Notes under the pieces: model-generated
The model's input: only the letters and a program-made list of their open reading frames with translations
Told to the model about the DNA's origin: nothing
The model's database searches: none
Assembly (NCBI GenBank): GCA_036609835.1
Contig: GCA_036609835.1_4358.1
DNA: 44,717 nt
Source: a phage
Reading direction: 5' to 3' (one strand)
Made by a program: the position numbers and the translations under genes
In this document: piece by piece, positions 18,236-25,323 of the stretch
Layout: each line of letters begins with the position of its first letter
How positions within the stretch are numbered: position 1 is the stretch's first letter

Positions 18236-18439
18236 ATGTATGCAATTTGCGAAGTAGTTCAAGAGTTCGATGAAGAGTTCGACGGTGACTTGTGCCGGGT
18301 TAAAAAGGTTCTGCAGGTTTTCCCTGACGCAATGTCTGCTTACAAGGCATTAGATATATTTGAACCTGGAAGATACGGGGATTATGACACTGTTCTGAGG
18401 GTTGTCCATGAGCAGGATTTAAACACAAGATTCCGTTGA
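18236..18439 (+). CDS. Hypothetical protein, 67 aa (moron)
   Basis: Opposite strand to flanking head genes; own promoter, strong RBS and downstream terminator; acidic. Confidence 0.6.
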   Translation: MYAICEVVQEFDEEFDGDLCRVKKVLQVFPDAMSAYKALDIFEPGRYGDYDTVLRVVHEQDLNTRFR

Positions 18440-18440
18440 A

Positions 18441-18470
18441 AACTAAGGCCCCTTAATGGGGCCTTTTATC
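18441..18470. terminator. Bidirectional rho-independent terminator
   Basis: aaactaaggccccttaatggggccttttatc. Confidence 0.65.
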
Positions 18471-18930
18471 ATTCTGGTTTAGCGACCTTCGCCACTTTAC
18501 TGACGGCCTCTACGCCACCGGCATCGGTAACTTTAACGAAGTATTCACCAACTGCATTAACCGTCAGAGACAAGGCCTCTTCCGGGGCGTTTACCACTTC
18601 CTTACCGTCTTTGTACCAGGTCAGAGCATACGGTTCTTTACCCGCCTTAACTTCGACAGTGATAGTTGCGCTGCCATCTGTAAGTTCAGTGTCTTTCGGT
18701 TGCACAGAGAAATACACGTCACCAGCGTCCGCCAGATACGGAATTTCATAAAGCATACCCGCGGCAGAGAGTGCGATACCTGTCTTGTCTGCAAACGGCA
18801 TATCGTCTACTGGTGTACCGAGTACACTTTCATCTTCAATAAACACCACGTTCTCGCCAGAGCCAGACACGCGGGCGTACTGGACTACGCGACGCGACGG
18901 TACATCAGTTACTTTGAAAAAGCCCATCAT
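18469..18930 (-). CDS. Ig-like domain protein (putative head decoration), 153 aa
   Basis: ATITVEVKAGKEPYALTWYKDGKEV...GEYFVKVTD resembles an Ig-like fold. Confidence 0.45.
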   Translation of the reverse strand: MMGFFKVTDVPSRRVVQYARVSGSGENVVFIEDESVLGTPVDDMPFADKTGIALSAAGMLYEIPYLADAGDVYFSVQPKDTELTDGSATITVEVKAGKEPYALTWYKDGKEVVNAPEEALSLTVNAVGEYFVKVTDAGGVEAVSKVAKVAKPE

Positions 18931-19973
18931 TATTCCCCTTTCAGATAATCAGCAACACGTTTATCGAGTTCCGCCATCTGCTTAAGCGTGAGCGGATTCC
19001 CGAAACCATCTACAGATATTACGCGAAACTCTTCCGGCGATATACCGCTGTTACGGAAAATCTTACCTCGCACCGGGCCGAGGGCCTGGTCCTGAAACCA
19101 CGCCGGTTGTTGTTTAAGGAACTCGTAGTAAGTGGTGTCTGCGCTTACCTGGGTTCCACCTTCTGCGCCCTTAGCTGCGCGTTTTGCGCCCTTATCGAGG
19201 AAGTCGAACTCTGAACTGATTACCGGTGCCGTGGTACTTCTGCACCCAAAATGGGCCGGAGGCATCGGCCCTTTACCGATTTCCCACATCATTCCGTCTC
19301 TGGCCCTGCAAATCGTGCTGGTACGGCTGTCCAGCGTTGATACCCACTCGTACCTATCGATGATGTCGTCGTTCTGGCGGTACGTCTCGTTGCGGGCTTC
19401 GTTGGACACGTGAGACAGCGCAGTACGGATTACTGTAGCTGCATGTTTCTCTGATACGTCAGCCAGCCCGCCTTTACCGACTACTTCTTTAACAATCTGC
19501 CGTGTTGTCTTGCCCTGAACAAAGCCCATCTTAACGCCGGTGACCAGGCGCGCCACCTCCGCTTCACCCCAACCTGACATCAGCTTGGTGAAATCAACGG
19601 GCTTGTCGCTCAATGATAATGGTTGAAACTCGGCAGCGGCCCATACCTGCTCAGCGGTAGGCGTAACAAATTCCGCGTCTACGTTGGCGGTCAGTGTCTT
19701 TACGTTCCACTCAGCCTCATACGCCGCCAGTTCCTTAAGGTCTTCTGTCAGCTTTGTCTGCCAGTCGCCCGTAAGCCCCACCAGTGCTTCTTCAAGGTCG
19801 CGTAACAATTTATTCAGTCGGGCAGTGCTTCGCCCGTCGTCACCGAATAACAGCACCTGCCGTTTTATTTCGTCCCGCATCTCCTGAATGAACGGTGCTA
19901 GGTCTTTCACTTCACCAGATGCGGTGCGTTGCAGCCAAATCTGGTGGCTGATTAGTGATGTCAGTAAGCTCAT
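18930..19973 (-). CDS. Minor head / head morphogenesis protein (Mu F-like), 347 aa
   Basis: Position after portal; C-terminal STICRARDG...PPAHFGCRS Cys/His block typical of this family. Confidence 0.6.
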   Translation of the reverse strand: MSLLTSLISHQIWLQRTASGEVKDLAPFIQEMRDEIKRQVLLFGDDGRSTARLNKLLRDLEEALVGLTGDWQTKLTEDLKELAAYEAEWNVKTLTANVDAEFVTPTAEQVWAAAEFQPLSLSDKPVDFTKLMSGWGEAEVARLVTGVKMGFVQGKTTRQIVKEVVGKGGLADVSEKHAATVIRTALSHVSNEARNETYRQNDDIIDRYEWVSTLDSRTSTICRARDGMMWEIGKGPMPPAHFGCRSTTAPVISSEFDFLDKGAKRAAKGAEGGTQVSADTTYYEFLKQQPAWFQDQALGPVRGKIFRNSGISPEEFRVISVDGFGNPLTLKQMAELDKRVADYLKGE

Positions 19974-20054
19974 ATACCCTCCTGTTTCGATATGACAATC
20001 ATATCAGTCGGTAACGTATTGGCATAATCATACGCATTTAAGGTTAAAAAGAGC

Positions 20055-20085
20055 TTGATTAAATTCTACATTCAAATGTAGAATT
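20055..20085 (+). promoter_or_regulatory. Promoter TTGATT-N18-TAGAAT overlapped by a perfect 11-bp-arm palindrome (candidate operator)
   Basis: aattctacatt-ca-aatgtagaatt at 20062-20085; AAACAGGAG RBS and ATG 20116 follow. Confidence 0.55.
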
Positions 20086-20115
20086 TAAACGTACACTTAA
20101 ACAGGAGAAATACAC

Positions 20116-20769
20116 ATGAAACTGCAAACATTAGAGTTCCCTTATGGAGAAATCACTTTTGACCGTGAAAACTTTATTAACGTAAACGAGCTGGTTGACC
20201 AGATGAACCGTTGGCGTTTAGACAACGGCATGGGGGCCAGAGAGCTTCGCCAGGTCATGGCAACGGATGGCTTCAAGATTTTCAAGGAGGAATGCGAAAA
20301 ACAACTCGGAATCGAGAATGCCATAAGGGCGACGAAAGGCCGAAACGGTCGCACCTTTGCATGTCTCCATCTGGCAGTATATATTGCTGAGCAATACAGC
20401 GCCTATTTCCATTTCCTCGTTATCGACCGCTTTATCACACAACGGCAGGTAGAACTACGAAACATTGGCGCGGTGAGCTTTGTCGAGCTTAACGCTGCCG
20501 TTAGTCGAATGATCGAGCGCACGGAGGGAAGAATTGGCCACAGTGGACACTTCATACAGGTGGCTAAAGCGGTAAAGGAATCCGTAGATATCCGCGACGT
20601 AACGGGTTTCGATACATGGGACTCTCAGGATGCGAAGACCAATCAGTTGCGAAGTGACATCCAGAAAGCTCTGGTGACGCTTCTTGACATGGAGGCCGTT
20701 AATACATGGGGTGAACTGAAAGAGGCGATACCTCGGGTTGTGCGTAAATGTGCGGCTAATATACGTTAA
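20116..20769 (+). CDS. KilA-N-like domain protein (putative), 217 aa (moron)
   Basis: KGRNGRTFACLHLAVYIAEQYSAYFHF resembles the conserved KilA-N core; own promoter/operator and terminator; opposite strand to portal and head genes. Confidence 0.45.
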   Translation: MKLQTLEFPYGEITFDRENFINVNELVDQMNRWRLDNGMGARELRQVMATDGFKIFKEECEKQLGIENAIRATKGRNGRTFACLHLAVYIAEQYSAYFHFLVIDRFITQRQVELRNIGAVSFVELNAAVSRMIERTEGRIGHSGHFIQVAKAVKESVDIRDVTGFDTWDSQDAKTNQLRSDIQKALVTLLDMEAVNTWGELKEAIPRVVRKCAANIR

Positions 20770-20796
20770 AACTAAGGCCCCTAGCGGGGCCTTTCT
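20770..20796. terminator. Bidirectional rho-independent terminator
   Basis: aaactaaggcccctagcggggcctttctattt. Confidence 0.65.
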
Positions 20797-20798
20797 AT

Positions 20799-22268
20799 TT
20801 ACTCCTGTTGTTGCGCGGACTGCGGAATTTCTCCTGCTACCTGAGCAACCGCACCCAACGGCAGCGGTGCGTCCCCAATAGCGTTCTGAATGTCCTCATC
20901 GGTCCAGTCGGTTACGCCAGCCTTACGCAACGCGGCGTAGTAAGCAGTAGCTGGTAGCAGGCCTGCGTTAATGTCCGCCATCCACTGAGCGCGGTCCTGA
21001 GCTGTCATCGGTTGCAGGAAGAACTCCATGTTCAGCTTGAATTCAATCTCAGTATCTTCACTAAGCCCAAGCATACCCGCAACCCAGCGCAACGCATCGG
21101 TATACGCCATGCTTACATTACGTGCTATTGTTGCCATGACTGACGTGTCGGCGCCGCGTTGCAGGCGGGCCGATTCCGCGGTGATTTGCTGCGTCGGGGT
21201 GATAAGCTGCGCGCCAATCTGGATGGCCTGATTCTCTTTATCCAGCATATTCTGTTTGGCGAGGTTAGTTTCCGCCGCCTGAACCAGAAACGCATTTCCG
21301 CCGGAGCCGATGTTGTGGCCTGAACGCGACCCCATGCGTATGCCGTGTGGGTTGGCTTCTTTCCACTGCTCCATGCTCATGTTCTCGCCGGGGGCAATGA
21401 ACAGTGTCGGTTGACCTACTATAAAGCTGGCCTCTTCCACATCGGCCGAATTTCTGAAGTGTCCTATATTTAGCTCAGCTAACGGCAGTAAAGGCGCATC
21501 GTCTATAGTGGCGTCGTTGTTGCTTGCGCCAATGAACGTGAACGGGATTTTACCGCGCAACTGTTCGCCGAGTTCCGGGAAGATTTCGATTACTTCATCC
21601 TGTGCGCCACCTTCGGCATCGAAGCGGTAGATGCGCTGGCGGTAGCGACCGTCAATCAGGTCAAGGACGCGGTATTGCTCGCCGAATTTTGTTTCAAACT
21701 CAGCGCCTGGTTCCGAGTATTCCCATGCCTCACGCAATACAACCATCGTCACGCGGTTCACTGAGCCGATGCGGGTGAGTCTCCAGTTGATAATGTTCTC
21801 CGCGGTATAGAATGCGATTACCGGGTTTAATAATCCCGCGTTCTGCTCTGCCGCCGTTGCTGCGGCTGTTTCCGGGGCGTCCACCAGCAACCCGCCACGG
21901 CCTATCGAGTTAATCTCCATCAGCGTATCCTGCGCGTGCTGCCACAGCCCGACACCTGAACCGTCAGCGTTGTGCAACAGGTACTCAAGTTCAGGCGGGA
22001 TAATCTGCTCAGGGTCTTTGCGCATCACTGACCCCGTCATCCCCGCCAGCGTGCGTTTGGTGAAATTGTAGCAGATAGCGCCGTTCTCGTATTCTTCCTG
22101 TCGCTGTGCTGCGTAGGTCTGGTCAGGCTCGTTCTTCCCGACGTTGCGCAGATAGCGGATAAGGTCGCCTTCAAGAGCGTGGCGTACCTTCTGCCATTTA
22201 TCGAAGTGATGCAGCCATTCCCGGTGTTTTGTCTTAACACCCTGATTCTGACCGTTCATAGTTAACAT
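20799..22268 (-). CDS. Portal protein, 489 aa
   Basis: Size and position immediately downstream of large terminase. Confidence 0.7.
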   Translation of the reverse strand: MLTMNGQNQGVKTKHREWLHHFDKWQKVRHALEGDLIRYLRNVGKNEPDQTYAAQRQEEYENGAICYNFTKRTLAGMTGSVMRKDPEQIIPPELEYLLHNADGSGVGLWQHAQDTLMEINSIGRGGLLVDAPETAAATAAEQNAGLLNPVIAFYTAENIINWRLTRIGSVNRVTMVVLREAWEYSEPGAEFETKFGEQYRVLDLIDGRYRQRIYRFDAEGGAQDEVIEIFPELGEQLRGKIPFTFIGASNNDATIDDAPLLPLAELNIGHFRNSADVEEASFIVGQPTLFIAPGENMSMEQWKEANPHGIRMGSRSGHNIGSGGNAFLVQAAETNLAKQNMLDKENQAIQIGAQLITPTQQITAESARLQRGADTSVMATIARNVSMAYTDALRWVAGMLGLSEDTEIEFKLNMEFFLQPMTAQDRAQWMADINAGLLPATAYYAALRKAGVTDWTDEDIQNAIGDAPLPLGAVAQVAGEIPQSAQQQE

Positions 22269-25140: not shown

Positions 25141-25323
25141 TCACCCCACTATCTCATCGCCAAGCCACGCCGTTTCTCGTATATCGTCTACTACACACGC
25201 AGCGTGCTCACGGCTAATTGCAAAAATGTAGAAGCTAAACTTCTTCCCGTCGGCGTCGATGTGGTTAACCGAGTATGGTTTCCACAGGACGCCATCAATA
25301 ACTACCGGTTCAGGCGCTTTCAT
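25141..25323 (-). CDS. Hypothetical early protein, about 60 aa
   Basis: ORF-track ORF 25141..25332; ATG 25323 preferred; in coupled gene chain. Confidence 0.4.
   Translation of the reverse strand: MKAPEPVVIDGVLWKPYSVNHIDADGKKFSFYIFAISREHAACVVDDIRETAWLGDEIVG

Follow-up and report, generated by a model that had tools for sequence, protein, structure and literature searches.

A KilA-N-type gene cassette with a putative operator over its own promoter in the head-gene region of Kagunavirus-like and Jerseyvirus-type phages

An accessory cassette between the MuF and portal genes

The window (the whole 44.7-kb stretch of DNA analyzed here) belongs to a Kagunavirus-like E. coli phage. Within its head-gene region, the MuF gene (18930–19973, minus strand) and the portal gene (20799–22268, minus strand) flank an 828-bp cassette (19975–20802) whose ORF runs opposite to the head genes. 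The ORF encodes 217 amino acids on the plus strand, from an ATG at 20116 to a stop codon ending at 20769, as a preliminary description of this DNA had it. It is preceded by a Shine–Dalgarno sequence, AGGAG (20103–20107, read from the sequence), located 8 nt before the ATG and kept in all related loci. The same description took the portal and Mu-F-like genes to be convergent with each other; this was wrong, as both lie on the minus strand, and the ORF is convergent with portal only and divergent from MuF.

A predicted sigma-70-type promoter (20055–20084, plus strand) combines a −35 hexamer TTGATT (20055–20060), an 18-nt spacer, and a −10 hexamer TAGAAT (20079–20084); it scored 9 of 12 matches in a consensus scan, and the annotation of phage Jersey also places a promoter there. 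Downstream of the ORF, a GC-rich hairpin with an 8-bp stem (20774–20793; −15.7 kcal/mol on the plus strand, −16.8 kcal/mol on the minus strand) would terminate both the cassette gene and the convergent portal gene. The preliminary description called this terminator bidirectional; its minus-strand U-tract is marginal, because the terminator scan listed the plus strand only. A closely similar terminator closes a second plus-strand slot (18434–18467 of the window; also in phage XY2). Inside the left end of the cassette, the consensus scan returned a promoter-like site facing MuF (19998–20025, minus strand; ATGCCA-16-TATGAT with a TG). The block ATCATATCAG at this site is kept in loci of two of the dyad classes described below (T1 and T2), and the site may serve as a MuF-directed promoter. 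Rfam and tRNA scans of the cassette region gave nothing credible.

Portal and MuF are neighbors in two Kagunavirus phages, Bas71 and XY2, with 98% identity in the portal. In blastn comparisons with these co-linear relatives, homology ends at 19974 and restarts at 20803, and an 84-bp spacer with a hairpin stands in place of the cassette. As close relatives lack exactly 19975–20802, the segment is a true moron-like cassette, in keeping with the preliminary description, with its own promoter and terminator (at the level of consensus matches) around a single ORF. Morons are autonomous promoter–gene–terminator units in late operons, first described in lambdoid phages. The cassette resembles them in these signals, in its position between two conserved late genes, in its presence or absence among relatives, and in that its neighbors function without it; it differs in its virulent siphophage carrier, its opposite strand, its own putative operator, and its very wide spread at one fixed Jerseyvirus-type locus. 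The insertion is not a one-off: approximately 340 phage records, nearly all of Jerseyvirus-type Salmonella phages, hold the cassette at this locus, and scans of metagenomes and genome collections added only three loci and one locus, respectively. Two complete cassettes stand in tandem in phage TUMS_E15. In Jersey, the gap beside the cassette locus contains a Hef-like homing endonuclease. The Jerseyvirinae papers that we found are, in the parts available, genome notes, and our literature search returned no paper linking KilA-N with Jerseyvirus.

A late-gene activator essential for MuF expression is an unlikely identity for the cassette product, since those late genes are also present in close relatives that have no cassette. 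Its role is most likely accessory, and neither lysis nor virion assembly; as an accessory gene it is clear-cut but rather unremarkable. Promoter, putative operator, gene, and terminator together make up a self-contained, portable module, which marks a hot spot of exchange within the Guernseyvirinae-type head module.

A two-domain protein with a KilA-N-type fold

The 217-aa protein is a predicted KilA-N-type DNA-binding protein. Its N-terminal domain (residues 1–110; 20116–20445) consists of a β-hairpin and a winged helix-turn-helix (wHTH) in a KilA-N/APSES fold and varies by lineage; the C-terminal domain (residues 119–214; 20470–20757) is all-helical in the AlphaFold2 model and nearly invariant. 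Searched directly, Pfam KilA-N (PF04383) aligns with residues 13–105 at 20.4 bits (E = 4.6e-4), short of the gathering threshold of 23.8. A profile search yielded 140 family clusters, and PF04383 is matched by 30 of 45 aligned profile-linked relatives (best E = 7.1e-18); homology to proteins that match PF04383 extends over the full length. The AlphaFold model matches APSES/KilA-N folds, and KilA-N and N1R/p28 proteins are among the Foldseek matches. The KilA-N likeness first proposed from the bare sequence thus stands through relatives and fold. With the KilA-N/APSES family (phage P1 KilA, poxvirus N1R/p28, fungal Mbp1, Swi4, and Bqt4), the protein has in common the N-terminal β-hairpin and winged helix, a modular build with a variable partner domain, occurrence in phages, and profile-level kinship via relatives above the Pfam threshold; it differs in scoring below the gathering cut-off itself and in having a C-terminal domain of no described family.

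Over its full length, the fold also matches the dimeric protein DdrC of Deinococcus radiodurans (PDB 7qvb, 7udi, and 8u0g; probability 0.97–0.99), a DNA-binding homodimer built of a wHTH and a four-helix bundle (PMC9303277). The order of elements is the same (β-hairpin, wHTH, linker, four-helix bundle), but identity is 10 to 12%, differently oriented domains give a high global rmsd, and the resemblance need not reflect homology. DdrC, moreover, is a bacterial stress protein that binds DNA without sequence specificity, through grooves of its C-terminal domain.

The C-terminal domain has no Pfam, NCBIfam, or PDB sequence match, and PDB sequence searches with two profiles gave insignificant matches only. 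Codon differences in this domain number 72 synonymous against 9 amino-acid-changing, a pattern that places it under very strong purifying selection; judged from its sequence, the gene is real and presumably expressed. An overlapping ORF or a DNA-level constraint was rejected as the cause of the invariance, since synonymous sites are heavily diverged. Residues conserved family-wide are N31, R34, G75, R115, N126, W168, and R179. The predicted fold and the conserved dyad suggest that the protein binds DNA; its pI of 6.9, which is not that of a basic protein, speaks against this.

Approximately 14% of the family clusters seem to be N-terminally extended, judging from lengths and match positions, and the extension was a GIY-YIG/T5orf172-type nuclease domain in all seven of those scanned. 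This suggests that the cassette-type module acts as the DNA-binding part of these longer relatives; the catalytic domain itself is confined to them and is absent from the 217-aa protein.

PHROG 6095, labeled amidase, matches the protein over its full length (9e-121), and many GenBank records carry the label, but the reading as a cell-wall amidase (a lysis enzyme) is almost certainly false and was rejected: Pfam (E ≤ 1 for this protein, E ≤ 0.01 for 45 relatives) and NCBIfam (E ≤ 0.1, this protein and five relatives) yielded no amidase, CHAP, or lysozyme domain, the sole trace is an insignificant match to the autolysin AtlE (E = 0.6), the name is borne only by the protein's own orthologues in a viral fold search, catalytic residues are not conserved, the fold combines KilA-N with a helical bundle, and the phage already encodes its own endolysin, holins, and spanins. 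The correction concerns an error, "amidase, lysis," that has spread through many records, including those of therapeutic-candidate Salmonella phages.

A palindrome over the promoter and its sequence classes

A perfect dyad and putative operator of 30 bp (20059–20088) overlaps the promoter spacer and the entire −10 hexamer. Its 14-nt arms, TTAAATTCTACATT (20059–20072) and AATGTAGAATTTAA (20075–20088), are 100% complementary and enclose a 2-nt center, CA; the perfect inverted repeat over TTGATT...TAGAAT reported earlier is present and longer than had been noted. It is the longest perfect palindrome of the window. Arms of 14 nt occurred in 0 of 100 block-shuffled windows, and 0 of 300 dinucleotide shuffles of the 130 nt upstream of the ATG equaled the dyad.

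The site is also unique. No second 12-nt half-site with at most one mismatch occurs anywhere in the genome of the closest relative or in the window, where the motif had already been described as occurring once. No other half-site or dyad copy was found in the window, EcoPhCCP1, Jersey, or S55, and no full dyad in 5,426 E. coli genomes; a phage collection outside the cassette-bearing phage group gave one weak partial match only. A half-site with two mismatches at 25225–25238 has no evident partner half-site or promoter-like context. Half-sites are confined to the cassette promoter in four complete genomes, and there is therefore no regulon.

Across the related loci, three dyads (T1, AAATTCTACATT; T2, AAATGGTATAT; and T3, GAATACTA) occupy one 26-bp frame centered 42 nt before the ATG, which in the window is the conserved core at 20061–20086. 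In every class, a −35/−10 pair can be read directly at the same position, with approximately 9 to 10 of 12 matches each. Within a class, the dyad arms are invariant, while flanks and synonymous sites fall to approximately 78% identity and the dyad center is free to vary. Half-sites of different classes are distinguished by three to five positions, and between classes 5 of 12 dyad positions are altered on both arms. Covariation amounted to 23 cells; shuffles gave 8.9 ± 2.6, with none of 500 reaching the observed value, and slid controls never exceeded 8. In T3, one short AGTATT-N5-AATACT dyad covers the −35 and a second, at a distance of 29 bp, the −10, and the L022 dyad is a 26-bp palindrome with no spacer. 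The conserved arms, the compensatory changes on both arms, and the genome-wide uniqueness support the palindrome as a functional and dedicated putative site, as the preliminary description had proposed.

Each dyad class goes with its own motif in the N-terminal domain ([AT]RE[LI]RQVMAT with T1, FKHLRQLMTT with T2, and EKNLSQLLST with T3), a pairing that rests on three or four evolutionary classes only. In the double cassette of TUMS_E15, each protein class stands with its own dyad class. The T1 dyad occurs in at least three phage backbones, with an A1-type protein in two of those where the gene was read. The exception is formed by AG11-like phages, which have a T1 dyad beside a T2-type protein, a mismatch that argues against strict one-to-one specificity of dyad and protein. 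The pairing could be plain physical linkage, which is conceivable because dyad and protein lie less than 200 bp apart. The largest class, T0, comprises roughly half of the records and has a weak 6- to 7-nt dyad that is within chance (P = 0.43); a strong operator is therefore not obligatory. Among seven independent distant homologues (24–33% identity), upstream palindromes exceed shuffles in three (P < 0.02), and four have no significant one.

To our knowledge, DNA recognition by KilA-N/APSES domains in phages is essentially unstudied, and we know of no studied member of the sub-family to which the cassette protein belongs. The naturally matched sets of N-terminal domain and dyad, three classes in a 26-bp frame, would make a recognition code directly testable.

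Probable autoregulation and its alternatives

We judge it probable, if only just, that the cassette encodes a negatively autoregulated accessory DNA-binding protein. Host sigma-70 RNA polymerase would initiate at TTGATT-18-TAGAAT, and the mRNA would yield the two-domain protein, with a winged-helix DNA-binding N-terminal part of KilA-N/APSES type, a C-terminal part like a helical bundle, and an overall architecture like that of the dimeric DNA-binding protein DdrC. This protein, probably as a dimer, would bind the 26- to 30-bp dyad over the spacer and −10 of its own promoter, where it would block RNA polymerase and so keep its own level low and buffered. The near-invariant C-terminal domain would be the real effector part, most likely acting by non-enzymatic contact, its partner being DNA or a protein of the host or of a competing phage. 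A dyad-symmetric site, conserved and covarying, over the gene's own core promoter fits negative autoregulation; that the binder is the gene's own product, and that binding represses, is suggested by the uniqueness of the site, the class pairing, and the double cassette. The preliminary description had left the choice between a separate repressor and autoregulation, and the evidence favors the latter, short of proof. The anti-repressor, host-killing, or defense roles raised there are guesses at this stage.

Control of the KilA-N gene from outside, by a different protein (a phage regulator or host factor) bound to the dyad, is unlikely. Small Cro/Xis-like regulators are encoded elsewhere in these phages, and the perfect T1 dyad that AG11-like phages keep beside a T2-type protein would suit such a regulator. 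However, the half-site is unique in the four complete genomes and serves no regulon, a host factor cannot account for three lineage-specific sequences when the hosts are the same, and the cassette enters, as a unit, backbones whose relatives have neither dyad nor gene. Comparison of the window with the cassette-less Bas71, weakened by the high mosaicism of the two genomes, brought out no gene of evident DNA-binding function that accompanies the cassette. The "DNA-binding protein" Jersey_22, considered as a paralogue or partner, has no similarity to the cassette protein.

We also consider it improbable that the palindrome is a nucleic-acid structure or a symmetric promoter and not a protein site. 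It might form a cruciform or hairpin in replication or recombination, or an RNA hairpin in leftward read-through transcripts or in transcripts from an upstream promoter; alternatively, two mirrored −10 hexamers might drive divergent transcription. The dyad sequence folds at −12 kcal/mol (z = −5), covariation that preserves arm complementarity is equally compatible with a stem, and the palindrome is entered as a terminator in one database record. In near-identical phages, moreover, the center flips to its exact reverse complement (CA/TG; ATAG/CTAT), a signature of hairpin-mediated template switching. Against a structural role, the predicted mRNA of the gene starts downstream of the dyad, centers of 0 to 2 nt (none in L022) make poor loops, the AT-rich arms have no U-tract behind them, no Rfam family matches, and the T3 layout is a classic operator arrangement with a very weak hairpin. 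As for a symmetric promoter, the left arm does mirror TAGAAT on the minus strand, but this mirrored −10 has no usable −35 (both read from the sequence).

BstA, an abortive-infection protein of prophages, has a cognate DNA element, aba, that confers self-immunity (PMC8585504). Like the cassette protein, it joins a KilA-N-type N-terminal domain to a second, effector domain, and its variants have distinct cognate elements, each a short variant-specific stretch of DNA at the start of its own locus (PMC8585504). By analogy, the KilA-N protein might act on replicating phage DNA, by competitor exclusion or abortive infection, with the lineage-specific dyad as a cognate "self" element that protects or marks its own genome beyond setting promoter level. 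In virulent Jersey/Kagunavirus-type phages, the dyad would then be both operator and "self" element of an effector directed against co-infecting relatives. We regard this as quite unlikely. In favor of it, the cassette follows the pattern of BstA in combining a variable N-terminal domain, a variable dyad at the gene start, and an invariant putative effector domain, its gene is accessory, and two orthogonal cassettes occur together in one phage. A PADLOC scan of 45 members gave weak matches to the defense-candidate model PDC-S22 in 12 (best 8.6e-9); the remainder were isolated single-member matches, and nothing was named BstA. No sequence relationship was detected beyond the fold, and BstA, which was not itself compared directly, is larger; the C-terminal domain matches no family in any library searched, and there is therefore no evidence of kinship to the C-terminal part of BstA. 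The carrier is a virulent phage and not a prophage, the cassette element is a dyad over the promoter −10 whereas aba is described with no mention of a palindrome over a promoter (PMC8585504), and class T0 lacks a strong dyad. If this reading were nevertheless true, the invariant C-terminal domain would attack or block phage DNA replication, and the N-terminal domain with its matching dyad (T1, T2, or T3) would define immunity groups, which would explain cassette exchange, tandem stacking, and the upkeep of orthogonal pairs. An effector acting in phage–phage competition would extend BstA-type logic to virulent phages.

The homing endonuclease I-TevI autorepresses. GIY-YIG endonucleases of this kind with KilA-N/Bro-N modules resemble the cassette as free-standing intergenic genes, and in the cassette, too, the DNA-binding module would recognize a site over its own promoter; relatives of the cassette protein carry GIY-YIG domains, whereas the cassette protein has no nuclease domain. 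The cassette might accordingly be a selfish element derived from a homing endonuclease by loss of the nuclease domain, in which the dyad would be what is left of the recognition site or a copy of it serving as operator, and persist mainly through mobility and not benefit. This reading, compatible with autoregulation, seems quite improbable to us. The nuclease-extended clusters speak for it, as do the opposite-strand intergenic insertion with precise gene-end boundaries, its presence and absence among relatives, the tandem and duplicated cassettes, the Hef-like enzyme in the neighboring gap of Jersey, and the known partnership of KilA-N/Bro-N with GIY-YIG nucleases (bioRxiv 10.1101/2020.11.28.402263). 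Against it, the family has no conserved acidic, His, or Cys constellation, and the very strong purifying selection on the C-terminal domain across hundreds of phages points to a function beyond that of a relic.

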